Shown here: piece by piece, positions 21,136 to 54,420 of the stretch | Layout of the letters: every line of letters starts with the position of its first letter | Numbering within the stretch: the first letter of the stretch is position 1 | Assembly (NCBI GenBank): GCA_905178155.1 | Contig: CAJINV010000007.1 | Coordinates: 3,490,265 to 3,554,264, forward strand | Length of the DNA: 64,000 bases | Source: Amoebophrya sp. A120 | Lineage: Eukaryota; Protista; Dinoflagellata | Direction: 5' to 3' | Notes under the pieces: generated by a model | Seen by the model: the letters and a program-made list of their open reading frames with translations, nothing else | The model's database searches: none | Told to the model about the DNA's origin: nothing | Program-made: the position numbers and the translations under genes

Positions 21136-22602
21136 ATGACACCAAGCAGTTTCGCTTCAAGCTTTCTCTTCGTGGACTCACCTACCTCAACGATAACTAC
21201 TCCGTCGGTATTGCTGCGCTCTACGGCAAATGCGGACGATGATTTTGCTGAGAAGTATCGATCAACACGACTACTGTTCCCTGGGAACATGTCGGCAAAA
21301 CGAAGACGAAGGCGACCCACGGAATCTCCGCGTCATGGTAAAAGTAGCAACAAAGCCAGCACTAGCGCACGAGCCTCGGCGTTTTTGTGCAGCGGAGAAG
21401 AAGATCAATCTCGAATTATATCGACTACAAGAACAGCAACAGCACGGAAGCTGTTATCCTCGTCGACCCGTCCTTCAAACACTTCCTTCATCACCGTGAA
21501 TTGCAACGGGTTCCGCAATCACACTCCTCTTGCGCAAGCCCTGTACAATTCCCAACCGCATTGCCGCATCGGCGACGTGCCGCCGACTTCACAGCAGATC
21601 GTCTTGGTTGCGAAAGACGTGGACAACCTGGAGGATAACGGGGATGGGTTGGGCCCGCAACCGAAAACGCATTTGTTAGTGTCCCACGTCCCACCGTTCG
21701 ATCTGACCGACCCGGTGGGGACGGTGTCCGTGCCGAAGGCCCACGACACGGAGGTTTCTTCCTCCGACATGAAGGCGCAACTCATGGCGACGTATTGTGA
21801 GGAAAAATCCCCCCTCCCCATACCAAACCGGGACACTTCTGAAAATTTGTGATGCAGATTTGAAACCACAAATCGTCGCTGTATTGCATGAAGGCAAGTC
21901 TACAGGCTCCGCCACATTCTACAGGCGGTTTGTCATGCTGTTGCTCCTACAGCGTAGAGGTCTGCCATGCTAAGCGCCTAGGCCAAAACTTGTCTACTCA
22001 GGCCTGATACGGGCCTGCAGTCCTCGCCGGCAAGACAAATCTGATTTGTGGCCTCAAATACAGCATCACAAATTTCGTTTTCGATATGGGGAGGGGGGAT
22101 TTTTCCTTTCGATACGACGATGAAATTCACCAGCAACATGATGAAGAACCTGGTCAACATCATGCCGGGAGACCCGAGCGAGAAGGAACTGCTTTGGAAC
22201 GAGACGAAGCACATGAACAACCAGATGAAGCGGAAAACCCACATGGACTACTTGACTTCCATCCCCTGGCGGTCGGTCCAGCCGAGTCGCGAGGAATTGC
22301 TGGCGGGAGTTCGGGGGATCGAAGACGAGTACCCGCACCGGCTGGTGTTTTCCGCCTACGCGCTGGACCGGTCGTTCCACGACGAGATCAAGGCGAGATT
22401 GGTGAAAAATTGGACGTGGACATCGTTGCACAACTTGATCCGCAAACACGTCTTGGAACGCGCGGACACCACGGCGATCGTCTTGCGGCAGAGGCCGGCG
22501 GACATTGACGCGAAAGTGTACGACTACCGCAACCCGGATTCCAGTGCGGTGCTGATGCAAAGCTACAAAGACGCGTTCAGCTACAGCAAGAAGATCGGAT
22601 GA
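21136..22602 (+). CDS. Hypothetical protein, two exons split by a TIR introner
   Basis: Exons 21136-21792 and 22120-22602 join in frame (LMAT|MKFTSNM) after removing 21793-22119. Confidence 0.7.
21793..22114. mobile_element. Introner, family C (322 bp, TSD CGACG)
   Basis: TATTGTGAGGAAAAATCCCCCCTCCCCATA ... TATGGGGAGGGGGGATTTTTCCTTTCGATA. CGACG at 21788-21792 and 22115-22119. Homologous to 56689-57005. Confidence 0.9.
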
Positions 22603-25825: not shown

Positions 25826-28800
25826 ATGATGGATTTTTTCCGGCGTAAAGCCGGTGGCTCCTCCCGGTCTCAAAGCCCCGCTCCGCGGCCCGGCCAACAA
25901 CCGCCCATTAACTACGGACCACCGAATGCGACGAGCTATTCCTCTAGTCAGCCGCCCCCGCCGGGAAGTTACTCCTCTTCGCAGCCACCACCCGGCGCTT
26001 ACGGTGGGCCGCCCCAGCCTGGCGGTGCTCCACCTCCGATGGGAGGCCCACCTCCTGGAGGCCCACACGGTCCGCCTCCGGGTGGACCGATGGGCAGCGG
26101 CATGATGAACAATTCTGCTCCTCCACCTGCAACCTCCTCGTGGGGGTCCTTACCACCCGCGCACCAAGGGCCACCCGGTGGTGGACTACCACCTGGTCAG
26201 CAGGAGCAAGGAATGATGTCACAATCAGCTCCGCCAATGAACCAGAACGACTACTACTCCGCAGGAGGTTACCAACAGGAACCGATGCATCAGCAGCCAA
26301 GTAGACCTCCCCCGACACAACACGGAGGACCGGGCGGGACGCATCTCGGTAGTATGAGTAACAACAACAATTCTGTGAACAATGTGGGCAGCTCGCTGCC
26401 GCCGAACGCCGCCCCGATGGCGAGCTTCGCGAATTTCGCACCGGGGGACTTTGAGGTAGACGTCGAGCAGCAGCAACATCCACAAGCAGCGAGAGGCGTT
26501 CCGGTTCCCGCAAGACAGGACCAGAGCATGACAGGCGGGAACGGAGGCACTGGTGGGCCACCAGTGCCGGGTGGGGCGTTTTACGACGATAGGCCGTCCT
26601 CTCAGCTCGGTGGTGTTGACCAAAACAGGTCTCGACCGAGTGGCCCTCCACCCCGTCGGGACAATGACGTTTTGTCGTCAAACACGAATGAAGAAGGAGG
26701 AATGGTATAATTATTTTTTTGGTTTTGGCACTGTATGACATTGACACCACAAAGACTTTGATAAATTGTCGCTCATGGTCTATCTGTACAAAATCTTCCT
26801 GAAGAACATTTATGAATTGCCGAAATATTTTATTAAAATCAGGTCCCCACCGAAACCGAAGTTGACCGCATCATCTCTATGCTTCCAGAGTCCGAACTGG
26901 ACGGTGTCACACTGCTTTCTTCCATCGAGCAGGCAGTCCTGAACTCCCTCGAGCAGGGCAACTACGACCGAGTTGAGAAACTTTCCGCAATGTCCCACCG
27001 ACTCTCCAATGCCATGAAGGAAGCGGCGAGCGGAAACCCGGTGTCGCAGCAAAACCGCACCGCCGCAAACGCAGCGGGGTTCAGTTTGCACGAAAACTCG
27101 GCGTCGCAGGACCAGATGGACAACGTGAGTTTTGGGTTTCCGGACCTAGGAGGCGATATGAGCCGTGGTGGCAGTGGACCCGGCCCGGCATCTTCCTCCT
27201 CGCGTGGCGGGAGTAAGTCGAAAGATAACGCGAATCTTCAAAATGCAGGACCAGGAGACGATCGCAACATGGATTTCGGCGACGAGCTCGGCAACATCGG
27301 TTTTCCCGATGTGGTTTCTGATCAGCCACCATCCGACCGCGAGAGAAGGAACAAGGATAGAACCTCCTCGAGTGTTAAACCGGGGAAATCACCGAAAAAG
27401 AAAAAGAAGAAAAAAGCGAGTTTCGAAGATCAGGACAATAACGTGGGTGATACAACTTTTGAGCAAAGCCAAAACCCAACCGTGACCGGGTTTCCAACTG
27501 CTTTTGAAGATGTGCAAGGTCCTGGGATGACTAAATCGGGACCAAGTAAATCCTCCAAATCTACTACTTCCCAACAAGAGGCTGTTGCTCAGAAGTCGAG
27601 CAGCAAAGAGTTCCCCACGACTTTCTTTGACATGACCAGCGATGCCGGGACTATCGAGCCACTGAATCTCAACAACACGGATGAAGAGCGCGCGGACGCG
27701 AGCGGCTCGAAGGACGGGGGGAGCGGGGATAAGACCTTGCAGCCCATTGACGAAGAAGAAGCGGTCGTTTTTGAGTTTCCGACCCAGCACCACAGGAACA
27801 ATCATCCGACTGATGGCCGCCCCTCTTCGAAGGAACAGGGGCCCAATATCGGAGATCTGATCGACCAGATGATGGACGGCATCCTCACACGGGACAGCAC
27901 AGCGACCACTGCATCAACAAGAACAGCAGGCGGTCCTCAGGACAAGACCTCCGAGGGGGGGCGAAGCACTACCGCAACGATAGCGCCATTGAACGCGGAA
28001 GCAGCTGCAATATCCGATCCGACAGGAGCCACTCTCGCAGTTCCACAGACTCCTTCTTTTGGTCTACCGCTGCAGGCAGGAACCGCACTCAGTGATGTTG
28101 CCCAAGCAACTGTGCCTGCGACACCTAGCGCGGCCGGTGTAGTTCCGACATCTGGCGGTCTTCTCGGCGGTACTGCAGGAACAATACAACCGCCCTTGCA
28201 CGCGCAGGAGCAACCACTGTCGCAGTTCCACCTACAGCAGATACAGATGCAGCAAGCGGCCCAGCAGCAGCAACAGCAGCTTTACCCGCCCCCTGCTGCA
28301 TCTGGCTCCGGTAGTCCAGCACCTTCTGTCATGCAACTCCCGCCCGCGTTGCTTCAACACCAAAGCCAAGATCTCCTCGCCCAACCTCCAGAGCCCTCCA
28401 CCCCCTCGGTCAATTCCTTCGATCTCCGGTGGCACCCGGACGCGCTGCTCCATTGGGAACGGAAGGAAAAGCAGTACAAGCAGAAAATTGAGGAGCAAGC
28501 CAAACAGATCACCAACGAGCAGCACAACGTGAAGGCGATTTTGTCGCAGTTGCAATTTTCCTCGTCCCAAATGACGAAAACAAAAGAGAAGTACGAACAG
28601 ACGATCAAGCTCTGGCAGCAGCAATTCTACGACTTGGCCGAAAAGTTCGCAGAGTTGCAGCAGAACCACGCGACCTTGCAGAAGGAATTTAAAGAAAACG
28701 AGGAAAAAGCGACCGTTCGGGAGAAGACCCTGTCGGATACGAGGGAGCGGTTGTTTTCTGAAAAGGCGAAAGTGGCAAACATGATGGACGAAGTGGAAGA

Positions 28801-31800
28801 AAAGCGGTTGCTCTACGACACATTGCAGAGGTATCCACAGAAAAAAACCCATCCACATCCAATTTGTCATGCAAAAAACGTATCAAGTCATGTGTTTGTC
28901 ATGCAAAAAATGAATGTGGATGGGTGTTTTTTCCTGCATAAGAGGAGGCTGTTGGATTCGAAAAAATCCCACAAGTCTGCGGAACAGGAACTGAGAGAAC
29001 TGCACCATATTCTGGACACGACGAAAACAGCCGTCGTTGGGGGGAAGGTATTTTGAAATTTGTACTTCATCTTCGCACTCAATATTTTGTATCGGTTCAA
29101 CATCGCTTTTGGTTTTATTGACGTGAGTGACCTAGTAACCGAATGAAGCGCTCGCCCTGTTCATTTCAAAAAACTCTATGTATAAATATGTACGAAGCGA
29201 CTACTTAAAATAAGGTCACCGTCGAGCGCGGCACTTCTTCCTCTTCCACCTACCGCGACGTGTGCTCGCCTGTCATGGCGGATCGTGACGATGAGCTGGC
29301 GGCCGCGGAGAAGGGGCCGGCAAACGCAAACAAAACTGTGAAAGCTTTGATATGGCGTTCTCAACTGTTACATTCTCAAGTGTTACATGGATTTGTCATG
29401 CAAGAATGGGAGAAGTGAAAGGGGGGAGGTTGCATCTGTAGCATTACAAATTCCGAACAGATTTGGGCGCTGTTTAGCCATTCGCACATTTGTCATGCGA
29501 AGCAGCTTGATCGTGTGGATCTTGATGATCATTTTGCATGACAAATCATGTAACAGTTGAGAATGTAACGTTTGAGAACGCCATACTTGAAGCGGTTACC
29601 ACTGCCGGAGAAATTCTGTCCTGTGATTCTGGATGCGAAGGGGATGGACGCTGGTGGTACTTGGTTCTTTGGTGATGTCAATGGGATGTTGCTGTGTGTA
29701 TTATGGTATGCGCTTTTGTTTTCTCGGGCTGGTAAAAATATTGTCAAGTTCATTGTTTATGGCTCACTAGTACCTCGGCGTCCCGTAATATCCTCCCATT
29801 GCCTTTGCCATAGCCATGGTCGGACGATGAATGCTCCGAAAAAAAACAGGTATTTCAGTCCCGCCCCACGACCCAGCTGCACCACAACACTCTTCCTCGT
29901 CTACCGCAGCGTCATCCGAAGCACCACAAGTCGTGGTCTCCCCAGAGCTAACCGCGACCCTGACGGAGCACTACAGGAATTTGGCAGTCCACGGCACCGG
30001 GCCGGTTTTTGAAGATCCAAACATTCTCGTTTCCGTCGCGAGTATCGAGCCGGATAACATCATATCAACGGGAAACAATTTTCCGTTCCCGTACACGTAC
30101 GGTGCAAATGCTGTTATTTCTGCATGACAAACTTTTCCTTGAATTCTCTTCCGCATGACAAGTCGCTTCTTCTAAGTTCTTGGTGAAATTTTTGATGCAT
30201 TCTGCACATGTGCGGGAAATTTGTATTGCATACATCACCTTCCACGTGCTGAACAAGGGCAACATGCCGGCGGATGTGCTGGATTTCGAGCTCGCGCTAG
30301 TCGGGAGTAGTGGAAACAGGGTTTTGCTGGCGCAGAAAGAGGCCGAGGAGAAGAGCGCGAGCAGACAATACGGGTCCTTGTCCCCTTCCAAGCGTTCCCG
30401 GTCGCCGGCGAGAATTACAAATAGTTCGAATCGGCCAGGGGATCAAATGGATAATTCCTACGAGGATTTGTCTGGATTCTTGAAGCACAGCAAGCCGGTG
30501 AAAGGCGTTTTGATGACCGCGAAGACGGAGCCCAAGGAGATACAAGCAGCCAGCACATCAAAATCCCCGTCTTCGAGTCGGAATCTCGATACAACAAAAC
30601 CCTTCTGGTCCGGCAGACAGTCCCAGTCGGTTCCGAAAACGGTGCAACGAACCGGGCTCGGGCAGCTACCAGGCGAGCGGCACCGGGCGACAGCGTTGCG
30701 CTTGCCCAGCATTTGGCCGAAAAACGCGCAAACCTGCGAAGTGCGGTTGATGAACTATAATCAGCAAGGAATAGACGTGTCAGAAGGCGGGAATTCACAT
30801 GCAGCAGGACAAGCAACGGAGCAGGCCGGGGGTAAAAACAGCAGCTCCTCCTCGTCCAGCACTTCCCACCCGACAACTTCAGCAGCCAACAACAACACCC
30901 TGAACCTCCTCGATTCGATGCTGTACGAGGACGCGCCAATTCTAGAACTCTGGTACAGTTCCGGTTCCTCGGAAAACCTGACAAACTACTTCGCGATCCG
31001 TTTCCCCCTCCACGCCATTGTCCGGAAGTGCAATCTATGCATTGCAAAAGTACTATCGCACTAGAGTGGAAATGGAATGATAAATTTGCGCAAGTAGAAG
31101 AAATAAAGTCGAATTTGTCACGCTGATTAAACTGGATAAAAGATTATATTGTCATGCATGGCTGCATAATTGCTCCTTCTGCAAGTGCGATAGTACTTTT
31201 GCAGATGATACAATCTGCGACCGTTGTCTCTGATAAACCACGCCGCCTTCTTCGAGCGTTGGATGCAGAAGGAATTCCTGGAGAACGAAGTTTGTTTCGT
31301 CTCCAGGGCGAGGAAGGTGTTCTCGAAAGACAAAAATGGAATGCTGCATTTTCTTAAATGCTGTCAATTGGGGGACAGGTTACGGGCGTTGCCGCACTTG
31401 CAGTCGGACGGGGAAGTGGTTGCGACGAACAAGCCAACCTCGAGCGAAAGTAGCAGAAGTCAGTTGCCACGAGCTACTGCTGCCTCCTACAAGCTTCTCC
31501 TAGCCGCCGTCGTCCGACGGGCGACCGTCTCTCCGGAGGTTTTAGTGCAGGCAGAGATCGTGGACCAGAATGTGTTTGTCACGGTTCGGTCCACGCAAAT
31601 TGCGGTGTCACGAGCAATGAGCGCAGCTTTGGTGGACGTTTTAGCGGATGAAGGTTCAGTCAACGCCGGCGTTGCGGTCGCGGGGCAGGAAATGGTAATC
31701 GCGACCGAGAAGCAAAATGCCGCTGCAGCAACGTCTAGTTCTCCGAATCGCAGAAGTAAAGCAAACCAGCACAACATCCAACAAGGCCCCATTCCGGGCC

Positions 31801-32153
31801 GGCAGCCACCGCCTTCCGCGACCGAGATCAAGGAGAAGGAAGAAGCGGAGCAACTTCTGAAGAAGAAAGAGACTTATCTGTTTGACGCAGAGAAGTTGGA
31901 AGACGCTTTTGCACTCGAACCCACACCCACACTGGAGAAGTTGACGAAGGTCAGCGAGGCGAATCATGGGCAGGAACCGCTGCCGGCTTTCTACAACGAA
32001 AATGGCGAGTTGGAAAATAACGGGAAAAGCTTAGAGGAAATCCGGTCGAAGTTCACGCGGACCCGGTGCGAAACGCTTTTGGAGCAGATTAAGAGGCGGC
32101 AGCGGAGCTACGTGATCGACAAACTCACAGGGACCGGGGGGATGCAGTTTTGA
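25826..32153 (+). CDS. Large 8-exon protein: Pro/Gly-rich N-terminus, coiled coil, and a C-terminal alpha-adaptin appendage (ear)-like domain
   Basis: Exons 25826-26704, 26843-28831, 28946-29047, 29215-29350, 29591-29656, 29850-30062, 30238-31035 and 31216-32153 all join in phase. HYRNLAVHGTGPVFEDPNILV, ITFHVLNKG and RFPL..LRPLSLINHAAFFERW resemble AP-2 alpha ear motifs (NGVLFEN, FYGNK, KLP..FFQP..FFQRW). Confidence 0.65.
28832..28940. mobile_element. Introner, family A (109 bp, TSD AGAGG)
   Basis: TATCCACAGAAAAAAACCCATCCACAT with a degenerate right TIR. AGAGG at 28827-28831 and 28941-28945. Can be placed as GT-AG (28831-28944). The 114 nt are in frame. Confidence 0.9.
29351..29585. mobile_element. 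Introner, family F (235 bp, about 52-bp TIR, TSD TTTGA/CTTGA)
   Basis: TATGGCGTTCTCAACTGTTACATTCTCAAG... pairs with ...GTTGAGAATGTAACGTTTGAGAACGCCATA. Removal gives VKAL|KRLPL. Confidence 0.9.
30063..30232. mobile_element. Introner with degenerate TIR (170 bp, TSD CATCA)
   Basis: TAT...ATA ends with CATCA at 30058-30062 and 30233-30237. Removal gives EPDNI|TFHVLNK. Confidence 0.75.
31036..31210. mobile_element. Introner, family E (175 bp, TSD CAATC)
   Basis: Perfect 20-bp inverted-repeat core TGCAAAAGTACTATCGCACT. Removal gives RKCN|LRPLSL. Confidence 0.9.
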
Positions 32154-32917
32154 GCGAGCTGCACTAGGGCCGGGCTTTGCCCGTCTGTTTTTTCTGGCAC
32201 CCAGGGGCCAGCACATCAACACACTCGCAGCACGGACCCTACTTACTCGAGTTGCCTCGTCTGGGAGAGTCCTCGGGCTCCGTTAAATTTAGGATTGACA
32301 GAGCTTTCATGTTTACACTAAAGACTACTTCTTACTTCCACACTGCGCACAGAAAACCATTCGAGCAAGGTTGCGCTCATCGAGAGACAAAAGTATGTTG
32401 GAGCCTGAGCCAAGCCTTTCTACGCATTACAGGCATGCTGAAGATGAAATTCAGTCGTGAGGATGTTAGATGTCGGATCAGAAAGTTGCTTGATTGCGGT
32501 GCAGCCTGTTAAGCTTAGCGAGCTGCATACTTTTTACGTCCGAAACAAAGGTCGAGCACTTTGTTCCGCTTCGAACATAGATCGGCGATCAAGGACCGAT
32601 CACGATCTTCATTACCATGTGGCTTTTGAGTATGCAGACAATCAGGATGAGATTCTTGATTCGACGAACAATTCATTGGCTTGCCCACTCTCGAATATGC
32701 GATTGGTATGCTGTGCCTGTGGCTTCTCTTTCCAAGAAGGTTTCTTTAAGAAATGACTTTAACACGTGATTATAAAGCTTCTTGACGCGACTACGGCACT
32801 AATGCCAGCAGCTTTTGCTTTGTCGGAGTTTGTTCGTTAGATTTACTTGTTATTAAAGTTCAGACACTAAGACTAAATCTAGAACTACGGAAGGCCCCGC
32901 TAACTCGTCTGTGGAGG

Positions 32918-35698
32918 ATGAGGTTACGTATGGCTGCGGACGACGGAACCCGCTGTGTCCGAAGTGAGCTCGTGTGGCTCCGAGTATGGTTCTTCTCGTC
33001 GTGCTCCCTGCTGCAGCTTCTAGCAAATTTCGGCGTTTTTAGCCACGCCATCCCTTTCCGCGATTTCTACTGGATCGAAAGTCACGACGCCGCTACGGGG
33101 TATCTGTACGCAAAGACATCGTCTTCAAGCATGGCCACAACGACGCTCTACTCGAACCAGAACAACATGCTGGGGACGTCGTCGTCGACGAGAGAAAACC
33201 CGATCAACAACTGGGTGATAACCCAGACCGGTCCGCTCTCTCACCAGCTCGACTGCGGCGCCCGTGGCTTCGACCTGCGACCAATGTGCTTCTTCCATGA
33301 AGACGAACAGTTCGAACCAACAACGGACCACGCAGGCGGAGACAAGTCGGAAAACATGGACGGCGCTCCTGCTCTTGACAAGAAGCTTGCTGGTGTGCGG
33401 CAAACCGATCCCGAGATTTACTTCCACCACGGGTTGATTCCTGTGAAAGTGGTAAAATTTGAGGACGTCCTGAACGAAGTTTCTGCCTGGGTGAAAAACG
33501 ACACAGAAACGACGGGCAATCAAGACCCGGTCATTCTCGACATGTCCCATTTCGTCAGCCGTACTGCCTCGACGAGGAGCGACGTGCAGGCCAGCTCAGT
33601 CGCTGGAGCTGATCACCTCGCGATGATTGCCGCCGGGAAACAAGAGGATGCAGGACGGGACACGTTGCGCCGTCAGAAAATAATCCCGGGAACGAAACGC
33701 GAACACGATCAGCGCTGCTACGAGGCGGTAAAGGCGCGGGCTGTTGAACTTGGATACCCTTGGTTTGATTCATGTAATTCCAGCATGGTAAACGTAAACG
33801 CGAACTGGCCTGGCCGGCCCGACGCAAAGCCAAAGCAATCCCGCTCAGGAAATGGTGGAGGTGTGAAGAGTCTCGCAGACACAGACGTGACAGATGTTGT
33901 CAAGACGTATGGGAGAATCCTGCTACTTCACGGAGCGGCGTGCGTAGATGGGAATTACGACCCTGGGGTGAAGTGTGAAGATTGGAATTTGCAGGACGTA
34001 CATGCTGAAAATCAGCTAGACAGCACAAGAGAAAAACTGGATGACGCGCAGCGAAAAACGTTCTCGCTGGGATACGATTGCCATACTGACAAGTCGGTGC
34101 CTGAGAGCAGGGTGCGAGTGGACAAAAAACATAGTTCTATCGCAAGAAGAGCCCCCACCGGCCGGGCGTGGGACACGTTCTTTTCTTACTGGGATAAAAC
34201 TGAAAAGAACGTCGATCATAAAGGTCGTTATTCAAGCGACACAGGTGGAGCAGCACGACACCCTCCTGCAAGGTCTGGGTTTCGCATGCTGCAAGCGCAT
34301 TGGCAATACGATGCGTCGAGTATCTCCTTTGCTGAGGCAAGATTTGGCTTGGATGCCTCCGTCTTGTTTGACAATGAAAAGTCAGGCATGAACTTTATCG
34401 CTGCAGACAGAGTACAGAAGAACGCCGGGGCGAGGAATAAAGCTTGGAATATCGTCGAGGTAAATGATATGGAAGCGTCAGGTTTGAAATCGTCAAAGTT
34501 GAAATACGGTAGGGAAAACTGTCCCCACTACCCCGGTTTTCCCCAAAGACAATTTTTTTTTTTCGATCCAATTGTAAGCAGGGCGGGCCCTTCGCAAGCG
34601 ACCTGCGCCGCGAATGGCCAGACCGAAGCCCGCTCCCCCAGGTGTGTTGCTGGACTCAAAGACACTGCACGCCTTGCCCGGCTTTTTGGGGCGCAAGCAG
34701 CTCGGGGCCCGCGAGGCAGCGCCCTGGGCAAGGCGCCCATGCCAGACCCGCCCCCCGGCCACCTAAGGCTGAACGCAATGCCCCTTGCCGCGGACCTGTC
34801 TTCTCCGCTTGAGGCTGGCCGGCACCGTTTCCCTGAGTGCATGTTCGGACACGCTGGCGAGAAAAAAAACGTATGCTGGGGATTTCGGCCCTAAGCAGCT
34901 ATCTACGCACTTTCGGCCTCCAAAACGAGCACCAGAAACCTCCCGAAAAGGTACGCATGCACGACCCCCAGGGAAACGGTGAGGCCGGAGCCTCAGAAGT
35001 TGGGCGCGGCCAGTGTGGCGGGGCCGCGTTGCAGTAGCCCACGCGCGGATGGGGCCGAAGTAGCTACACACATCCACAAAGCTTGCTGCCCCGTCAGCTC
35101 ATGCGCCGACTTTTGCGCGCCGCTATCCCGCTTGCTCCATTGCATACGTAACAACCTCAGAAAGTATCCGTGAAGAAGATCCACTAGCGGACACTATCCG
35201 GGCGGGCTGTGCGGCCGGTGGCCGTGTTGTTGCGTCAGTTCATAAAAAAATTTTTGATTTGGGGAAAACCGGGGTAGTGGGGACAGTTTTCTCTAACGTA
35301 TGAAATAATTTGTAATGCATAAAATGCATGACCCGAGGCGCGTGTGTTGCAGAGCAGGCAAGTGAGGCCGATTGTAAGCCTGTTTGGGGTTACAGCTCGA
35401 GCTGCTAAAGTAGCATGAGAAAATCGCTCTTCTTTGCCTAAACAGCACGACAAACTGGATTTAAGGGCCGCCAAGATTTGTCATGCGCCACTCGGAAACT
35501 GGGCTTCAGTTGGCATCCATTTTATGCATCACAAATTATTTCAACTTTGAGGATTTCAATCCTGACGTTTCCATAAATGACGTTTGCCTGGATAAAGGAC
35601 AACTTGCAAAGGTTGTGAGGACGTTGAATCAGGACGCTGAGGATCGTGAAAGAACGAACGAGAGCTCGTCAATCGACATGGAAGAAGTTCACATGTAG
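32918..35698 (+). CDS. PI-PLC X-domain-containing protein, probably secreted
   Basis: Motifs SHDAATGY, TQ..LSHQLDCGARGFDLRP, FHHG and VILDMSH, with a hydrophobic N-terminus. Exons 32918-34467 and 35581-35698 give WNIVEVND|VCLDKGQLAKVVRTLN. Confidence 0.85.
34468..35575. mobile_element. Introner, family G (307 bp core, TSD AATGA), carrying a nested element
   Basis: TATGGAAGCGTCAGGTTTGAAATC ... GATTTCAATCCTGACGTTTCCATA. AATGA at 34463-34467 and 35576-35580. Confidence 0.88.
34505..35300. mobile_element. Non-autonomous TIR DNA transposon (796 bp, TSD TGAAA)
   Basis: 43-bp TIR TACG(G/T)TAG(G/A)GAAAACTGTCCCCACTACCCCGGTTTTCCCCAAA with 2 mismatches. TGAAA at 34500-34504 and 35301-35305. GC-rich interior. 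Confidence 0.92.
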
Positions 35699-36594
35699 AA
35701 GTAAGCGAACTGTTACAGCTCCTGATTCGCATGTTCTCACCAGGCACACACTTGTGCAGTGGCGTGATTTTATTTGAATTGTGCCGCAATTATAACACTA
35801 AAGTGTCAAGCTTGACATTTGTGTCAATTAGGTCATTGACGATGAGCGCACGCATTACAATTTCAGTCAGTGTTCTTGTTCTCTATCTCTACCAAAGGAC
35901 GTGGCCGAGCCGTTCGGTAAAGTAGGAGGTGGGCACCGAAAGATTGGGCTCCCGTTGAGCAACAACCAGGCAGCACTCGGTATTATTCTATTTTCCTTCT
36001 AGTTCATGCTCATGGACGAATCGTCAACATGCTGGAAATTATAAATATGATTATGATCATATCAAATGGAAATGACTGTGGATCCCTATCTAGGTCGGTG
36101 GGAGATCAGATGTGGCAAATGAATATCCAGACGGAACAAGAATCGGTAAGGACAACTGATCGACTGCGCAGAAATTTACGATTATGCTCGAGAATGATCC
36201 ACAGTACCAGCGTTAGAGATCAAACCCCATCTTCATAATTCCACCGCGACATCAGCACCGTTGATTTTTACAGTTGGAAGATTTATTCGTATACTATTTG
36301 CCATTGAGGACCACTTTCACGACGAACGCAGCATTCAGTCGCTTCGTTCCTTCAATCCCTTGTAGTTCCTGTGCTCATCGACTTACTTCCACACCGACTT
36401 GATTTATTGTCACGACTTTGAGGTGGCTTGCGCGCGGTTATTTTCACGTAAGTACACGCAACGTTAGCGCATTTCTCTTTCTGTATTAAGTATTCTGCTT
36501 AAGCTTATTTCTCTCGTCTACTCGACTCGTAATTTTTCCTTGCTGTTCACTTCTAGCTTGTCGAAAAATCCCTTTAAGTAGGTTCATTTCCAAA

Positions 36595-38244
36595 ATGCAA
36601 CGTCGCTCTTGTTCGCTCGGGCCGTTCGGCTCAAAAACTGCAGTCCGTTTGGTGTCTTTAAGCCAGATTTTCTCTTTGGTCTGCCAACTTGTCGATGCCA
36701 GTGCGGCGGGGGCTACGGCAACACAGCCACAAAGCTGCATTGGACGTTTCTGCAGCAAACTTGCGGGTCGTAACAGCCGGAACCGAGGTTCGGGTGCAGT
36801 CCCACTTCTGGCTCCTGCAACTTCTGTCGACCCGAGTTCTCCTCCACGCTCAAGTTCGTCTGAACGTGAATTCAGTGCAGACTCTGCTCCTCGGAGCGCG
36901 GCAGTATATACGATGCAGCCTCAGCGGCTGCGTCAGGAGCGGTGTGATCCGTCGAAATTTCGTTTTACAGCTTTGCCTGAGGAGTTGCAATTGAAAAGTC
37001 TTGAGTGCCTCCAGGATGGAATCACGGATGAAGATCCCGTGCGCAGCTTCCGGCACAACCCGGCATCTGTAACTTTCCGCAAGAACCCCGGGCTGAAGGC
37101 GTTACGCAACCTCCTGCAGGATGTGGAAGGGCCCGCAAGAAATTGGTGGTCCAATTGTCCGCCAGGAGGACAAGCTTCGGAGCCGTTTCCTGAAACGCTT
37201 GTAGCACAGAGTGAGCTGTTGCAAGCTCGTGTCCGAAACATCAGTGCAGTACAGCAGGCGGTGCGAGCGCGAGCCGAAGGACGAGATGGAGGTTACCCTG
37301 TCGGAAAATGGTTCCAGGACCAGTTGGAGCGTATTGCGGGCTTAGAACGAGGCAGTTTGTTTTCGGACGTGGCGCCTGCGCGCAAAGGCCTCCTCGAGTC
37401 TATTCTTGTCGCTGTGGAAACGAAACTTGGCTCCGCGGTCCGCAAGGCTGAACAGATCCGAAACGGGTTTGATGACGGTGAGGCGGAGGCCGGACATGCA
37501 GAGCAAATATTTGAGTATGAAGATAATGACGGGCAAGGCAAATATGAGATATCGATCAGAAACGCCATGCACCTGCCAAATCGTGGGCGCGGCTTTGTTG
37601 TTAGCCTGGAAATTCTGTCGAACGAGTTTAGTGATGACGTCATGCGAATTATCCTCCAGAAAAGCGTGCCCCACGCCCCAAAGCCAAGATGGAACATCAA
37701 TCTGCTACATACGCAAATGGAGAAGGTTTTGCTGTTGCGCATTACAACATTGGGCCTCCTCCAGCGTAGTGGTGATTGGCTACTGAAGTCGCGTCGCAAG
37801 ACCTTGATCATCTGACCCTAATTAACAAAGCCTGACAAATCCCCAGATGCTGGCATTAGAGACTGTCGTTATGGCGGGGTTCTTGCGCATGAGAAACATT
37901 GTGCGTCGTGGCATGCAGTAGATGTGCTTGACAAATGTTGGGTGGGGACGTTTTTACACAGGATGCAAATGCTCAGCCACTGGTGGTACGACCGCACTAG
38001 TGATGATTGGGGACGAAATCTTCATTGGGTTCCCCTTCGCCTAGCTGAAAACGAAGCGCAGACGCTCCGATTCCCCGTGGTCAGCCCGCTCGTTATTAGA
38101 CGCCCACATGTGCCACGGCCGGGAAACCCAAACGGGGACCTGTATTTTGGAGTGAAATTCGATCAAGGCGACGAAACCGGGAACGGCCGCTGGGGAGTCA
38201 GTATTTTCTTCGTCCCCGACCGCACGCGCGACGAAAACTCCTAA
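36595..38244 (+). CDS. Hypothetical protein with a signal-like N-terminus and an F-box-like motif
   Basis: Exons 36595-37649 and 37971-38244 join in frame (DVMR|MLSHWW). FTALPEELQLKSLECL resembles an F-box start. Confidence 0.6.
37650..37965. mobile_element. Degenerate introner, family C2 (316 bp, TSD CGAAT/CAAAT)
   Basis: TATCCTCCAGAAAAGCGTGCCCCA ... TGGGGACGTTTTTACACAGGATG. The right end resembles that of 62784-63062. Confidence 0.7.
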
Positions 38245-40236
38245 GGAGAAAGCGGAGGCGCGCAATAAAACTCCATGCTACGTCCTCGAATTGGTGTCGA
38301 AGATGCTTTCGAGCCTTTTTTTTTGTATGAAAAATTGTAGTGATCTACTCAGGCTACAGTGACCTACTCAGACTTCCTTTTTTGATTTTACATTGCAATA
38401 TAAGAAATTGCAGAAGTAGATCTGGCTTGATTTCCTTGATCAAGCTGTTGAAACACGGGGCGGGATGAAAATAAAAGTACTATATTTCTGCTCTGCTTTC
38501 GAAGGAGCATTCTGCTAGGGCGCGTCAAACCCTTAACTCTAGAGCCGGCCCCTAGATGAATCAGTATTTACCGAATTGAAGAAAGGACTAACCCGTGTTC
38601 GTCGTCCATGATAAGGAAGTTTTCAAGAACGCTGCCTGGATTTCTTGTAATTACGCCTCCGCTAGGAAGTACTACGCAAGAGCAGTCCTATGTAAGTTTT
38701 TACCCCAGTGCCGCGGATATCCACTATTTTAATTTCTAGAGTAGCTTTCGAATTCGGAGTTGCAGACGAGATTAACGGCATCTTGTTCCACTAGTAGGGA
38801 AAGGGAACGAGAGTGGACGAGGAAGTGCCCTTGGTTTTTCTGAAGCAGAAGCACGACTTATTGGTGGAAAACTAGACATTCACTTGTAGAAAGGTAGACA
38901 GTTCCCTGACAGTATCTCGCTCACCTAGCACATTTTTTTGACTTTCTTGAAGCAGCCAGGCAATCTACTGCCAGTCCCATCATGGACTGTCCGCGCCTTC
39001 CATTTTTATGGAGTGCTTGAAGTACTTCGACCATGAGCTGACAAACCTCAATAACTACCCTGCGTGGACATGCATCATTATATTGGACCCACGAAATTTT
39101 ATGAGTACACGTCTGACGCCCACACCGTGGCGCAGGAGTGCCGCGATAGCGCCGGCGGTCGCCACCGTATCAGGAGGCGGGCCACACGCACGCACCGGCG
39201 ACGGCTGAAATAAAAAATTGGGTTCTTTTACTTGAACAACCAATCGGTACATATTTGTCCTACTGGTTCTACTTGCGTGGTCGTGGAATTTGGCGCGGAA
39301 ATCATATGTAGTGTAGGCGGTCTTGTTCTTCGGCATTGCAACTGCAAGAGCGCACCAGGTCCATCACGTTCTTTCTCTTTGGTGCGCGCAATGCATGGTC
39401 GTCGCGCCGATCGGTACTTAACTTCCACTTTTGCCCGACGAACCTGAACGAGGTATGAGCTGCTGATTATGACCGTTCTCGTCTCGGTGGATCCCGAACC
39501 CACTTTGTGCGAGGGTCGATCATCGAAGATATTAAATTTGGATCGATCAGCTGGCAGTCTTGATGCTTGCTGCGAGCATCAGAGTTCATGGCTCATGAGT
39601 TAAAAGGAAGTCGCAGTGCAGCTAGCTTTTGATGTTCTTTCTTTTTCGTCGCATGAGATGCCTCCGTGTTTTTTTCCCCGGAAAGTAGAACAAATGGAAA
39701 TTATTAATGGGCCACGAGGGTTGAACGATAGCGAACGACTTGCTTGGCCATGGCCAGTTTATGAGGTTTTTTGGAACTCATTAAAATGTAGAGGAAGGAG
39801 GACTTTTTTTGGACTCAACAGCAAAGATTCTTTTCGTTTTCTACTTTCATGCTTAAAACTACTCTACTAAAAGATAAGACTCTCTGTTTTTGCGACCGGA
39901 AGATCAACAACAAGACAACGCACCAGCAGAAAGCAGAAGCTCCGCTGCAGCGTATTGTCAGCAAACGGGATGGACACCAACAACACCACCTACCAAGAAT
40001 TATTGATGGCACCCTCGTTGACAGATGAGCCCCACGAGGGACCACGGTGACCCCTCTTCAGCGTGAAAGCAAACCCCTCCTAAGGAGACAGAGAAGAGTG
40101 GCCGCCTCCCTTGCGCGGCGACGCGGATCCTGCTCTTGACCTTGCGGCTCTACAACGTCAACTGCGTCGCTCTGCCGCACGACGAACCGCGCACACAGTC
40201 AAGAAGCAACAACCTCCAAAATCGGCCACCAAAAGG

Positions 40237-43200
40237 ATGTCCGAAGACGGTTATGTCTCTTGTAACGATCGGAATTCGAGTCGCAGTTCGGGTTGTAAGA
40301 ATGAAACTACGACCCCGAGCACCAATTCCGACGACGGGCACTTGTTTGAGTGCTCGCCCTGTGAGCCCGACCCAAACGCGAGCAACAGTAGCACTGATGA
40401 GGAAGGAGAGCAGCTGCAACAGGGTATTATTCTTAGGAGAACCTCAAGTCAATACTAGCCTTATCCCGCTTCCCGTGTCCAGTAACCTGCAGACTTAATA
40501 GTATTCCGCTAGATGAATAGTAGCACTCAGCGTGTCTCTGTGGAGAATCGTTGTCGGCGCTTCAGCACAGGCAGGCCCATCTGCCGGCGATTTTCAAAGC
40601 GTCAGAACGGCTTCGGCACGATCCGGCACCGGCCGGCGCGGTGGGCAGGTTGGCCTTTGCCGTCATCTTGCATGCTGGCACCGGCGTGGCCGCGATCTGG
40701 CGGCGGGGGGCGGGCATGGTCGGGCACCGGCTTGGCCAGGGCCCGACACCGGCGTGGCCAGGGTCCGGCACCGGCTTGGGCATGATCGGCCACCGGCACG
40801 GTCATGCCCATGACCTGGCACCGGCGTGGCCACGACCTGGCACCGCCTTGGCCATGATTTGGCTGGCACCGGCTTGGCCGCGGCCTGGCACTTGCAGGCA
40901 TGGCCATGATTCCGCACCGGTTTGGCTATGCTCTGGCACAGGCAGGCAGGCTTGGCCGTGATTCATCTGGCAACGGCTTGGCCACGGCCTGGCACCGGCT
41001 TGGCCATGTTCTGGCACCGGCTTGGCCATGATTTGGCGCCGGCGTCGGCTTGGGCACGACCCGGAGCCGGCAGGCTTGGCCTTGCCATGACCTGGAGCCG
41101 GCTCGGCCATGGCCTGAGCGGGCGCCGGCCTTGCCGTGATCTGGCACCGACCGGCCTGGCCACGACCTGGCACCGGCTTGGCAGTGGTGTGGCACCGGCC
41201 TGGCCATGTCCTGACATGGGCCTGGCCATGATCTGGCACCGGCTTGGCCATGAGCTTCCTGGCGCCGGCTTGGCCGTGATCCATCTGGCACCGGCTCGGC
41301 CATGATCTGGCGCCGGCCTTGCCGCGACCTGGCACCGGACGGCTTGGCCATGATCTGGCGCCGGGTTGGCCATGATGTGGCACGGGGCGGGCGGGGCCAC
41401 GACCTGGAACCGGCTTGGCCATGATCTGGCACCGGCTTGGCCCTGATCTCATCAGGCGCCGGCCTGGCCATGATCTCTCTGGCGCCGGCCTGGCCACGAC
41501 CTGGCACCGGCTTGGCCACGATCTGGCACCGGCTTGGCCATGATCTGGCACCGGCTTGGCCATGACCTGGCACCGGTTGGCTGGCAGGCTTGGCCATGAT
41601 CTGGCATGCGGGCGCTGGCAGGTTTGGCCATGATCTGGCACCGGCTGGCTCGACAGGCTTTGGTCATGATCTGGCACCGGCTTGGCCACGGCCTGGCACC
41701 GAGTTGGCAGGCTTTGGCCATGATCTGGCACCGGCTTGGCCACGACCTGGCACCGGCGGGCTTGGCCACGATCTGGCGCCGGCTGGGCCATGAAGATCTG
41801 GAACCGGGCGGCCTGGCCATGATCTGGAAGCGGCTTGGCCATGATCTGGCGCCGGCTTTGCCATGATCTGTCATGCGGAAACACCCCGGGCGGATTTTTG
41901 TTCTAAAATGTGGCTAATTTTTCCGGGATTTCAAAAATTCCGGGCGCCCTTTCCGGCAGGCCCCACCGGCAACAGCCCGAGGCCCACAAAATTGCCCCGC
42001 TCGCCCTCTCATGCGCCTCGGCTGTGTTGCCGCTGTTCGGCTTTTGGGCCTCTAGGTTGGTCGTGGACGTGGTGTCCAGAGGTTTTCCAAGTTTTAAAAT
42101 TTAAAAATTCGGGCTGTTTTTCACGGAAAAGTGGTCCACACAATTTTCCAAAGCTTTTCGGGGTTTGTTGGAGAATCAGTGTGGTGGATGTTTGGGTTGT
42201 GTATGGGGCACAGTATCGGGGGCTGGAGGTCAAGGTGTGCCGTTTTCGAATGTGAAGCGGCGCGCGATTTTGTGTGTTGCCACTTCGCATTCCGCTGGCG
42301 TTTTGGTTTGTATCTCTCGTGGGATAGAAGATGTTGCTCGCCCCTCGGAACATGATGCTCGACATGCACGTCGAGCATCATCTTCCAAGATCACCCACAA
42401 CAACGCATGTCGGGTGAGGGAATGTCGGGAAGTCCAATTTTAGAAGATCCGAACAACTTCGGTTTTCGGCTTCTAAAACTGGGCACTTTCGGATTCTAAA
42501 GTCCCGGGCGCGCACCTTCTAAAACCACAAAACTCGCAAATCCTGCGGGATTTTGCGCTATCGGTGGTTTTAGAGGATTTTTTAGAGGACGGGCAAGGTC
42601 CGGGTTTTTCCGCCTCCGGAAGCGATTTTAGAGGGCATTTTAGAAGAATCCGGGCGAAAAATTAGAAGTGGCTTTTAGAGGTGGTTTTTAGAAACCACTT
42701 TTAGGGACCACTTTTAGAGGCGGAAAGTAGAGACGGGTTTTAGAGACGCATTTTAGAGACGGATTTTAGAGGCGCATTTTAGAGGCGCACTTTAGAGGCG
42801 CATTTTAGAGAGGGAAATTAGAGGCCAATTTTAGAGGCCGGAATTAGAGGATGGCTGCAGAGGGCATGGCAATGGGTGGCGTTGTGCATGGTCTGCTTGT
42901 CCGCGCCTTCAGGTCGTGGCGACTTCCTCTGTGGAGTTTCGTGTCGAGCCGAGGCATTGACCACTCGGTGTCCGGAGTGGGTTGTGGTAGTGCCTTTCCG
43001 CGTCTCATCTAGTTCTTCATGAGTATGACTCTTTGGGGATGTCCTGTTCGCAGTCTGGGTTCTTCCTCTTCGCGTCATTTCGTTAGCCCCTCGCCGGACT
43101 CTCCTTCCCGCTGTCGCTTTTCGTTTCATCCGCCGATGGGGAATTTGGGTGGGCCTTTTTTTTTGAAAACCGGAAAAATTAGAAGGATATTAGAAAGGAA

Positions 43201-46200
43201 AACCGCCCGGGCGTTTTCCGCATGAGATCTGGCACCGTCTTGGCAGGCTTTGGCCATGATCTGGAACCGGCTTGGCGCTGATCTGGCACCGGCTTGGCCA
43301 TGATGCATGTGGCACCCACGCACCGGCTTGGCAGGTTTTGGCCATGATCTGGCACCGGCTTGGCCGCGATCTGGCACCGGCTTGGCTATGATCTGGCACC
43401 GGCCCGGCCATGATCTGGCACCGGCTTGGCAGGCTTTGGCCATGTTTTGGCACCGGCTTGGCCGCGACCTGGCACCGGCTTGGCCACGACCTGGCACCGC
43501 CTCGGCCATGATTTGGCACCGGCATGGCCATGATCTGGCACCGGCGGGCTTGGCGGGCTTTGGTCATGATCTGGCAACGGCCGGCGGGCTTGGCCACGAC
43601 CGGGCACCGGCAGGCTTGGCAATGATCTGGCACCGGCTTGGCCATGATCTGGCATCGGCATGGCCACAGTCTGGCACCGGCTTGGCCACGACCTTCCTGG
43701 CACCGGGCGGCTTGGCCATGATCCGGAACCGGCCGGCTGGCAGGCTTGGCCGTGATCTGGCACCGGCTTGGCAGCCTCTGGCCATGATCTGGCGCCAGCC
43801 TTGGCACGGCCTGCCCTGGCACCGGCTTGGCCATCATCTGGCATCGGCTTGGGCACGACCCGGCACCGGCTGGCAGGCTTGGCCATAATCTGGCACCGGC
43901 TTGGCAGGCTTGGCCATGATCTGGCACCGGCTTGGCAGGCTTTGGCCATGATCTGGCACCGGCTTGGCCACGACCTGGCACCGGCTTGGCCATGATCTGG
44001 CACCGGCTTGGCTATGACCTGGCACCGGCTCGGCAGGTTTTGGCCATGATCTGGCACCGGCTTGGCCATGATCTGGCACCAGCTTGGCCATGATCTGGCA
44101 CCGGCTTGGCCACGACCTGGCATCGGCTTGGTCATGATCTGGCAACGGCTTGGCCATGATCTGGCAACGGCTGGCAGGCTTGGCCATGCATGATCTGGCA
44201 CCGGCTTGGCAGGTTTCCTCTGGCCACGACCTGGCGCCGGCTCGTGTTTCGAGGTTAGTTGCGTTTCGCACGTTGCTGCCCCGCCTCGAGGCTTCGCTGC
44301 TTCGGGGCTTCGCTGCTTCGGGGCTTCGTTGCTTCGGGGCTCCGCTGCTTCGAGGCTTCGCTGCTTCGGGGCTTCGCTGCTTCGGGGCCTCGAGGCTTCG
44401 CTGCTTCGAGGCTTCGAGGCTCTGCGGCTTCGAGGCTCTGCGGCCTCGAGGCTTCGCTGCTCCGAGGCTTCGCTGCTTCGAGGCTTCGCTGCTCCGAGGC
44501 TTCGCTGCTTCGAGGTTTCGCTGCTTCGAGGTTTCGCTGCTTCGAGGCTTTGCTGCTTCGAGGCTTTGCCGCTTCGAGGCTTCGCTGCTTCGGGACTTCG
44601 CTGCTTCGGGGCTTCGCTGCTTCGGGGCTTCGAGGCTTCGCTGCTTGTTCGAGGCTTCGTTGCTTGTTCGAGGATTCGCCGCTTGTTCGAGGATTCGCTG
44701 CTTGTTCGAGGCTTCGCAGCTTGTTCGAGGCTTCGCTGCTTGTTTGAGGCTTCGCTGCTTGTTCGAGGCTTCGTTGCTTGTTCGAGGCTTCGCTGCTTGT
44801 TCGAGGCTTCGCTGCTTCGAGGCTTCGCTGCTTCGAGGCTTCGCTGCTTCGAGGCTTCGCTGCTTCGAGGTTTCGCTGCTTCGAGGCTTCGCTGCTTCGA
44901 GGTTTCGCTGCTTCGAGGTTTCGCCGGCCGCTTCGAGGCTTCGCCGGCCGCTTCGAGGCTTCGCCGCTTCGGGGCTTCGCTGCTTCGAGGGTTCGCTGCT
45001 TCGAGGGTTCGCTGCTCCGGGGCTTCGCTGCTTTGGGGCTTCGGGGCTTCGAGGCTTCGCCGCTTGTTCGAGGCTTCGCCGCTTGTTCGAGGCTTCGCTG
45101 CTTGTTCGAGGATTCGCTGCCTGTTCGAGGATTCGCTGCTTGTTCGAGGCTGCGCTGCTTCGAGGCTGCGCTGCTTCGAGGCTTCGCCGCTTCGAGGCTT
45201 CGCTGCTTCGAGGCTTCGCCGCTTCGAGGCTTCGCTGCTTCGAGGCTTGGCTGCTTCGAGGCTTCGCTGCTTCGAGGCTGCGCTGCTTCGAGGCTGCGCT
45301 GCTTCGGGGCTGCGCTGCTTCGAGGCTTTGCTGCTTCGCCGCTTCGAGGCTTCGCCGCTTCGCCGCTCCGAAGCTTCGCTGCTTCGAGGTTTCGCTGCTT
45401 CGCGGTTTCGCCGCTTCGAGGCTTCGCTGCGTGCTTCGAGGCTTCGCGGCTTCGCTGCTTCCTTCGGCGTTTCGAGGCCTCATCGTTTCGAGGCTTCGCC
45501 GCTTAGAAGCTTGGGCACTTTGTCTGCATTTCGTTTTTGTTGTTTTTCGTTTCTATTCTTTGTTTTTGTTTTTTGTTTTCATTCTTTGTTTTCATTCTTT
45601 GTTTCCATTCTTTGTTTCCGTTTTTCGTTTCTATTCTTTGTTTTCGTTTTTCGTTTCCATTGTTTGTTTTCATTTTTCGTTTCCATTCTTTGTTTTCGTT
45701 TTTCGTTTCCATTCTTTGTTTTCGTTTTTCGTTTCCATTCTTTGTTTCCATTCTTTGTTTTCGTTTTTCGTTTCCATTCTTTGTTTTTGTTTTTCGTTTC
45801 TATTGTTTGTTTTTATTGCGGGATACTATTAAATAATGGGTTTTCTGACTTATAACTAGTCATGGTAGAGATTTGTTGTTTTGCATTGTCGTGGGCGGCT
45901 CTTTTAATTTTATGCATGAAGTTGAAGCCAGAGACAGATGCTAGATCAAGGACATGTTGATACTACCTTCCAGATGAACATAATTATACCTGCAGGAGGT
46001 CCTGCCCCCGTGGTTTCCGACATTTTTGTGAATGCGAAGAGGTACGAAAAGTTTCTGGACAAACTCCCGAAGCCCGAGTGCTTCGGCACAGTGCTGCTGG
46101 CGGATCATGTGCAAACCCGTGAGGAAAAGCAACAGTACGCGGATGACTTCACTGCTCGGTACAAGAAAGCGTCCGAGGAGGAGGCGCGGATCGTCGACCA

Positions 46201-53146: not shown

Positions 53147-54420
53147 ATGCGGGGACTACGTCGCTGCCCTAACGTTCTTGCGCTGTCACCTCTCGTCGCG
53201 GCTTGCTTCGCTACAACTTCACGACTTTTCTCACTTTTCGCTGTGCCACTGTCTGCCCAATTATCTGGGACACGACCTGTAGGCAGCGTAGTACAACAAG
53301 AACCTCCGCCAGCAATGAACACTGCGCAAGAACTGAGCAACGGCCTCGCCAACTGGAAGCCCGGCGCGGGGAGTTGGCAGGAACTGGGTGACCTCTTCAC
53401 GAACAGCGGCACGGGCATTGGCATTGTTCTCGGCCTGGGCCCAGATGCGAATTTCGCGAGGCAATTTTTGCACATGTGGACCAACGGGGTGTTGTACCTG
53501 TGCGACCCGTTTATCCACATCTTCAACGGCTACGACGATCCGGAATATAACGTGGACGACAAGACGCACCAGATCAATTTCGAAAACATCCGCGTGACCC
53601 TGATGCAAACCCCTACCATCCAAGGCCGATACTCGATGGTCCGGGAGTTCAGCTTCAGCTTCTACCGCCTTTGGCTGAAGCAAGACCCGCAGTACGACTT
53701 CGGGCAAATACCGCCGAGGTTCATTTTCGTGGACAACAATCCGAGCAAAGACGCGGTCTTGCGGGACATGCACGACTGGTGGGAGTTACTTCTACCGGGC
53801 GGCGTCATGGCGGGCGCCAGGCCCGAGCATCCGGGAGTGTTTCACGCGGTTGAGAGCTTTGCGAAGTTGCACAATCTGGAACCCTATCAACTGCAAAAGT
53901 GTCTGGGTCTGGAAACTTGTAATGCTGCGTTGGGAATAGTAAATGCTCTGCAATGCACAGTTAAGCATGATGAGAAATATCTGCGGTTTTTTGTGTTGCG
54001 TTTTTCGCATGACTTGCATGACAGGCAAAAGGGTCTCTTCTTGGACACGCTTCACAAACTTTTTGGTCATGCCAGGCAAGCATGACAAATCTTCCAGACC
54101 CAGACATTTTTGCATTTGATAAACCCCTGCTGGTCACGGACGAGCAGACCTCGATCGGGTTCGGCTGGTTTCTATCCACAGAAAAAAACCCATCCACATC
54201 CATTTTTTGCATGACAAACACATGACTTGATACGTGTTTTGCATGACAAATTGGATGTGGATGGGTTTTTTTCTGTGGATAGTTTCTCATCAAACCGAAC
54301 GACGACGCGACAAACGAAGAATACATGCGGAAGGCGGAGGAGATGAAGCGCGTCGCCGACGAAGCGCGAGAAAAGGAGGCAAGGAAAATGCAAGAAATAA
54401 CCTCGAAAGTTGAGTTGTGA
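53147..54420 (+). CDS. Class I SAM-dependent methyltransferase-like protein (Methyltransf_24 type), secretory pathway
   Basis: GIVLGLG, LYLCDPF and FIFVD..AVLRDMHDWWELLLPGGVMAG. Exons 53147-53884, 54127-54172 and 54287-54420. Hydrophobic N-terminus; the spliced C-terminus is KVEL*. Confidence 0.8.
53885..54121. mobile_element. Introner, family B (237 bp, TSD AACCC)
   Basis: 30-bp TIR with 2 mismatches. Removal gives HNLEP|LLVTDE. Confidence 0.92.
54173..54281. mobile_element. Introner, family A (109 bp, TSD GTTTC), inverted relative to the copy at 28832
   Basis: Perfect 30-bp TIR TATCCACAGAAAAAAACCCATCCACATCCA. Removal gives GWF|LIKPN. Confidence 0.95.

Follow-up and report, generated by a model that had tools for sequence, protein, structure and literature searches.

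We analyzed a 64,000-nt stretch of the Amoebophrya sp. A120 genome (the window; assembly GCA_905178155.1, contig CAJINV010000007.1, positions 3,490,265 to 3,554,264, forward strand), in which a PI-PLC-X-like gene is interrupted by two inverted-repeat elements, one lying inside the other. The outer (host) element spans positions 34468 to 35575, has the ends TATGG...CCATA, and is flanked by an AATGA duplication (34463 to 34467 and 35576 to 35580). The inner element is exactly 796 bp long (34505 to 35300), lies between two copies of TGAAA (34500 to 34504 and 35301 to 35305), and has 58-nt arms that are 88% complementary. An initial annotation of the locus had given the inner element these boundaries and this target-site duplication (TSD), all of which hold, and had placed the insertion 37 bp from the end of the host's left terminal inverted repeat (TIR); the pairing of the arms confirms that the left arm is interrupted at this point. 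With the inner element and one TGAAA copy subtracted, the host is 307 bp long and has 57 matched positions in a 62-nt pairing of its ends. The features are as follows.

32918 to 34467, + strand: coding exon 1 of the PI-PLC-X-like gene, including the whole left duplication; translated together with 35581 to 35698, it gives P0001, 555 amino acids (PI-PLC-X by Atlas)
34463 to 34467, + strand: left AATGA copy, the host's 5-bp TSD (sequence)
34461 to 35573, + strand: 1,113-nt stretch skipped in probable-RNA contigs (contig joints; the cut may slide 7 nt rightward)
34468 to 34504, + strand: left inverted repeat of the host, outer 37 bp up to and including the first TGAAA; pairs with 35539 to 35575 (−52.8 kcal/mol)
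34505 to 35300, no strand: inner 796-bp TIR element, TACG...CGTA, 60% GC; arms 34505 to 34561 and 35244 to 35300; no coding match found
35301 to 35305, + strand: second TGAAA copy, the inner element's duplication (sequence)
35306 to 35330, + strand: left inverted repeat of the host, inner 25 bp as displaced by the insertion; predicted to pair with 35514 to 35539 (mean pair probability, 0.985)
35309 to 35319, + strand: shared subterminal motif TTTGTAATGCA within the displaced host repeat (motif search)
35331 to 35513, no strand: host introner body; related copies in all four runs compared (X1, X4, X6, and X7)
35514 to 35575, − strand: host right inverted repeat, 62 bp, intact (sequence)
35576 to 35580, + strand: right AATGA copy, host duplication (sequence)
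35581 to 35698, + strand: final coding exon, from the end of the D517 codon through V518-C519 to the TAG stop (P0001 match; conservation of C519)

By self-BLAST, the arms of the inner and outer elements match with E values of 9e-14 and 2.5e-8, respectively. TAY...RTA/GCA elements of up to 3 kb with flanking duplications number 14 in the window (the host and the inner element included), against 0, 0, and 0 in three shuffles. Given these E values and the empty shuffles, the two elements are not products of chance. In elements of the TAY...RTA form, arm positions 4 to 10 are often not complementary, while the TAT and the A-run that follows are (e.g., at 21793, 31036, 49724, and 62538), a pattern suggesting a stem-loop-stem end code.

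Positions 32918 to 34467 joined to 35581 to 35698 encode, letter for letter, the public 555-amino-acid protein P0001, which is 100% identical to the exon 1 protein and carries Amoebophrya sp. A120 as its source label. The spliced gene model is thus already in NCBI, and it treats the composite as an intron; as it may have been built on the same RNA data as runs X3, X4, and X6, we do not count it as independent evidence. The last exon had been predicted correctly: besides matching P0001, it supplies C519, a residue shared by all 9 aligned sequences (P0001 plus eight other matches). The earlier label of the gene as PI-PLC stands in the looser form PI-PLC-X-like. Atlas assigns PI-PLC-X at 0.94 with 205 of 256 features (recognition of 1960, under its mark of 2300), the 10 best named matches all belong to one family or clan, and two homologues are named phosphatidylinositol-specific phospholipase by UniRef, but the PF00388 scores of P0001, P0002, and P0010 (11.7, 19.9, and 14 bits) are all below the Pfam gathering cutoff of 23.1. 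Features and homologue names support a PI-PLC-X-like product with putative activity. A PDB sequence search with the protein gave no matches, and an AlphaFold model built from a three-row alignment (mean pLDDT, 37.7) was set aside.

Skipping of the composite in probable-RNA contigs

Eleven sequencing runs were listed, and eight were compared. None of the runs found to contain the locus is on record as RNA; X3, X4, and X6, which come from two samples of one study, are probable RNA according to a computed guess. In contigs from all three of these sets, the joint 34460→35574 skips 1,113 nt, i.e., the composite plus one AATGA copy (1,108 + 5), with 169 (X3), 255 (X4), and 211 (X6) letters on the short side. 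The junction of 34467 to 35581 put forward earlier as a check on the gene model is therefore present in probable-RNA contigs. The X3 contig has no other letters over 31211 to 34460 and skips six further upstream stretches, two of which are plain GT-AG introns; because these ordinary introns are skipped as well, we take the contig to be spliced RNA. None of the eight possible cut registers of the 1,113-nt skip is GT-AG, GC-AG, or AT-AC. A canonical donor, GTAAAT at 34460, was also considered, but it falls one base outside the possible registers and cannot yield the observed joint.

In the DNA-like runs X1 and X7, the joint has a depth of 0. Unique X1 contigs instead cross from the exon into the left arm as far as 34493 and, on the other side, start at 35546 within the right arm and continue outward, in both cases with 0 differences. 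As these contigs enter the element from both sides, the DNA carries it.

The raw RNA runs X9 to X11 have no reads on the exons of the PI-PLC-X-like gene; coverage is absent and has no bearing either way. Some 40 X9 reads at 35518 to 35565 have foreign flanks and come from another copy of the host family. The RNA-seq reads of X10 do show removal of a sister TIR element, skipped by the joint 37646→37968 in 98 reads. A joint in which the inner element alone had been removed was found neither among the 11 joints of the comparison that included X3 nor among 15 of the 35 listed for X4 and X6, in contigs that drop rare forms and so demonstrate presence and not absence.

Several observations concern transcription around the gene. 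Just downstream of it, X3, X4, and X6 have no cover, whereas X1 and X7 do. Upstream, single probable-RNA contigs of X3 and X4 bridge the gap between the preceding gene and the PI-PLC-like gene (32153 to 32918), which X6 covers with separate low-depth contigs; overlapping untranslated regions or transcriptional read-through would account for the bridge, and a contig does not prove a single transcript. Further downstream, 65 X10 reads have a loose end with template-switch adaptor before position 36826, which lies ∼230 nt inside a long open reading frame (ORF) past its first ATG; an X3 contig extends to 36203.

Copies and relatives of the two elements

The A120 introner elements described by Farhat et al. 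(PMC7789003) have repeats of 8 to 20 nt and the end motif TAT-N7-AAA, which the paper gives as a summary over families. The host has the properties by which such elements are recognized (a terminal inverted repeat, the AATGA direct repeat, noncanonical removal in probable RNA, and genomic repetition) and is a member of the Amoebophrya introner class. Its two ends read TAT followed by N7-TCA, as do those of a spliced element at 29351. From 34468 on, 107 X1 contigs match the host, with unrelated letters upstream (agreement, 0.37). X1 and X7 also contain joints that skip 801 nt and lie wholly within repeat sequence, which we read as other copies of the host family without the insertion (empty copies); only one of the ∼800-nt joints in these runs (side, 40) meets the 31-letter bridging rule. 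Together, the DNA depth and the empty copies imply that the host family has many copies.

X1 contigs matching the inner element at 0 to 2 differences have a depth of 104 to 131, compared with 24 to 27 for the unique flanks, from which we infer roughly four to five near-identical copies; a diverged group of relatives has a depth of ∼60. The insertion would thus seem to be a recent one, in which an active family landed in a single copy of an introner that is itself abundant. Both ends of the inner element read TAC-N7-AAAA, and with its 5-bp duplication it has the same anatomy as introners. As this end sequence is close to TAT-N7-AAA, the inner element likely belongs to the same superfamily as the A120 introners, to judge from its letters; it is longer and richer in GC (60% versus 44%) and has no match to the subterminal motif TTTGT(C/A/G)ATGCA discussed below. 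The element fits a nonautonomous TIR DNA transposon (MITE-like), with a TIR, a TSD, no coding capacity, and empty sites. The four longest internal frames gave no meaningful Pfam match in the search for a transposase, the inner TIR pattern had no matches in metagenome contigs, and Rfam had none over 34300 to 35800.

Diverged relatives of the inner element in X1 (record 5) and X4 (record 9), compared over 34534 to 35301, carry extra sequence of ∼180 to 190 nt near 35004 to 35011 and of ∼200 nt near 34626 to 34669, perhaps further nested insertions. The X4 relative (probable RNA; depth, ∼20) also has 253 nt of other sequence at one end, a faint hint that relatives of the inner element are not always excised.

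The window contains a second composite (58351 to 61718), in which a 254-bp host introner with a GATGA duplication carries a 3,109-bp TIR element in its body (58529 to 61637; 66% GC, 52-nt arms at 90%, and a GTCTA duplication). It lies in a PF07059 gene, whose public model P0004 joins across all 3,373 nt, and the FPPEGAEDEF stretch after the P0004 junction is conserved in two homologues. The gene model and the conservation after the junction suggest that this composite, too, is removed. Eight frames of the 3.1-kb element gave no Pfam match, and the two long inner elements are not meaningfully similar to each other (best E value, 0.036). Both composites exceed the range of 40 to 1,000 bp covered by the published intron analysis of A120 (PMC7789003).

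The motif TTTGT(C/A/G)ATGCA occurs ∼31 to 54 nt in from the ends of introner families that are otherwise unlike (e.g., at 28863, 29392, 29545, 35309, 35535, 37935, 49763, 54089, 56453, and 62814), and 31 of its 46 matches in the window fall inside the 16 listed elements. It is absent from both long GC-rich inner elements. The motif is possibly a binding site for a mobilizing protein; the portions of PMC7789003 available to us do not mention it.

Two 109-bp copies of one introner, at 28832 to 28940 and 54173 to 54281, are 97% alike over 100 nt and lie in opposite orientations. The former is skipped in X3; if the latter is spliced too, removal would be independent of orientation. Another element, of 1,355 bp (41871 to 43225; 67-nt arms at 76%, with the 6-bp duplication GATCTG), lies inside a tandem-repeat region, and its ends (TCATG...CATGA) are of a type that differs from the TAY elements.

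Proposed removal of the composite

Our preferred reading, to which we attach fair though by no means full confidence, is that the composite is removed in one step as a noncanonical intron set by the outer ends of the host, with the inner element as a passenger. The noncanonical splicing machinery, for which the Amoebophrya spliceosome is the most likely candidate, would read the host's intact outer ends (TAT...ATA) and terminal stem and excise the composite together with one copy of the duplication, while the inner element folds on itself and loops out. The idea that splicing in Amoebophrya is driven by a terminal stem comes from the literature, where it is a hypothesis.

The predicted fold of the 1.1-kb RNA at 37°C is compatible with one-step removal. 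The intact composite is predicted to form a three-way junction of 34468 to 34503 with 35540 to 35575, the inner hairpin, and 35305 to 35330 with 35514 to 35539 (mean pair probabilities of 0.95, 0.98, and 0.99, respectively). All three parts, namely the outer 36 bp, the hairpin of the inner element, and the 25 bp that were displaced, would thus be paired; since the full host stem is predicted to re-form, the 62-bp stem would survive the insertion without prior removal of the inner element, and an inner-first excision would be unnecessary. The initial annotation had assumed that taking the inner element out restores ∼64 bp of pairing. Such pairing is real, at 57 matches over 62 nt, but its restoration is predicted not to require the removal.

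The outer 37 bp alone are also strong (−52.8 kcal/mol). We compared the ends of the composite, at comparable lengths, with those of five neighbors, i.e., other inverted-repeat elements skipped in RNA within 28500 to 38500. Its terminal duplex has −53.8 kcal/mol, compared with −28.3, −53.8, −19.8, −39.9, and −30.3 kcal/mol for the neighbors, and the pairing of the outer 37 bp matches or surpasses in strength that of the ends in all five. That 37 bp should suffice would be unsurprising, with published repeats of 8 to 20 nt and neighbors whose terminal stems are equal or weaker. The two alternatives offered initially, that either the outer 37 bp suffice or removal is recursive, leave out a third option, a host stem that re-forms around the looped-out inner element.

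The counterpoint to one-step removal is the inner element itself, whose terminal duplex is the strongest of the 16 elements compared (−65.9 kcal/mol) and which transcription completes ∼275 nt ahead of the host's right arm. With introner ends, the strongest duplex, and earlier completion, it could be cut first. One intervening sequence does lie inside another here, as in a twintron, and the inner one splits the host's inverted repeat while the host's ends stay intact and the stem is predicted to re-form. Inside-out removal in some form is a minority view that we nevertheless take seriously, and we hold with the same reserve the fuller claim of a nuclear twintron whose two introns, both without canonical splice signals, are cut from the inside out by hairpin recognition, the inner element being a working introner.

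Inside-out removal could be optional or obligatory. In the optional case, the inner element leaves first in a sizeable share of the transcripts, giving a 312-nt host intron, and the outer cut works without this step, with the same mRNA as the result. Its end signature and 5-bp duplication match those of spliced introners, and its exact removal would regenerate the host, whose hairpin it can precede as noted above. However, the inner element lacks the subterminal motif that most short elements have, and both long GC-rich TAY elements of the window (2 of 2) sit in introners and not directly in exons, as would fit elements that survive only in places that are already spliced. A relative that is still attached to its flank in a probable-RNA contig also speaks against a working introner. 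On balance, we regard optional inner-first removal as unlikely.

Obligatory recursion, in which, as in a stwintron, splicing of the host must wait until the inner element has left, because it needs either an unbroken 62-bp stem or the motif ∼41 nt from the 5′ end, is considerably less plausible. The insertion does shift the left motif from position 41 to 842, and 1,113 nt is far above the 240-nt mean of the noncanonical introns of A120 (PMC7789003). Nevertheless, splicing does occur in neighbors that have weaker stems and no motif at the 5′ end; three of the five have no forward copy of it within 60 nt of the 5′ end, and displacement of the motif therefore need not matter here. Moreover, folding predicts that both the stem and the motif pairing are restored across the junction, and the insertion leaves the extreme ends of the host untouched.

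That the skip exists at the level of DNA, in a lineage or life stage without the element, with the putative RNA contigs being DNA, strikes us as highly improbable. X3, X4, and X6 count as RNA on the strength of a guess, and single contigs bridge the gap between two genes, as DNA would; against this stand the ordinary GT-AG introns skipped in the same contig, the exon-to-element junctions of X1 at single-copy depth and the zero depth of the joint in X1 and X7, and the sister element skipped in raw RNA-seq reads of X10. We give practically no credence to read-through into the elements with a stop at 34894, or to a dead gene: the frame is open that far (ORF track), but the spliced joints in three contig sets contradict read-through as the main form, which would moreover swap the invariant C519 for TIR-encoded sequence, and the suspicion that the C terminus of the ORF track was wrong is borne out. 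Pfam had no matches on the read-through ORF.

Related nested introns and implications

The closest known system is that of the A120 introner elements (Farhat et al. 2021; PMC7789003), in the same organism, which share with the host a TAT-start inverted repeat and a 5-bp direct repeat at the exon border, noncanonical splice dinucleotides, occurrence as a repeated family, and the absence of any transposase found. In contrast, the present case is a two-element composite of 1,113 nt, beyond the range of 40 to 1,000 bp, with a split left repeat; the host repeat is 62 bp rather than 8 to 20 nt, and TCA takes the place of AAA after TAT-N7.

Nesting itself is shared with Micromonas, whose introner elements can be nested or merged (Verhelst et al. 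2013; PMC3879977). According to the passages available, those elements have splice sites, GC donors included, whereas the intron here lacks canonical signals and is interrupted in the very inverted repeat to which a guiding role in removal is ascribed. Fungal stwintrons (PMC12403724) resemble the present case in that an internal intervening sequence breaks up part of the one surrounding it; they also have inverted repeats close to their ends, and occasionally nearly the entire unit leaves in a single step. They differ in that a U2 intron lies within another U2 intron, whose donor it splits, and splicing normally takes two steps, while here the outer ends are intact. The nonconventional introns of Euglena (PMC12501133 and PMC11282704) have non-GT-AG ends that are paired together, TSD-like repeats, and a proposed MITE origin; they belong to another lineage and follow another intron code, with CAG/CTG at fixed offsets. 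In that different lineage, a synthetic 50-bp intron with 12 complementary bases is spliced (PMC12501133).

Nesting of introners is thus known already, from Micromonas (PMC3879977, in the passages available), and the spliced gene is already annotated. We found no published report of a nested introner in Amoebophrya, in a search that covered mostly openly available papers. The word "nested" does not occur in the main and supplement text of PMC7789003 (its supplementary Fig. S19 to S25 might show cases) or, as far as their accessible main texts go, in PMC12130899, PMC11282704, bioRxiv 2020.10.14.339549, PMC12501133, and PMC11170887. The passages of PMC12501133 and PMC11282704 on nonconventional introns of Euglena contain no nested case.

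The locus bears on how Amoebophrya, with no U1 snRNA detected, removes its tens of thousands of noncanonical introns (PMC7789003, as far as its accessible text goes). It is one locus in a known system, and the likeliest answer, that the outer stem is enough, is unsurprising. Still, the locus is a natural perturbation, in which an 801-nt insertion 37 bp from the 5′ end leaves exact removal intact. This bounds what the machinery needs of the linear sequence to the first 37 nt, unless removal is recursive or the machinery reads the re-formed junction. If the composite is instead an inside-out twintron, composites may be common in A120, with two in this 64-kb window, would have been left out of the published analysis by its 1-kb upper limit, and would be natural probes of what the splicing machinery reads. 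The locus also suggests that introners may shelter larger mobile elements inside genes.
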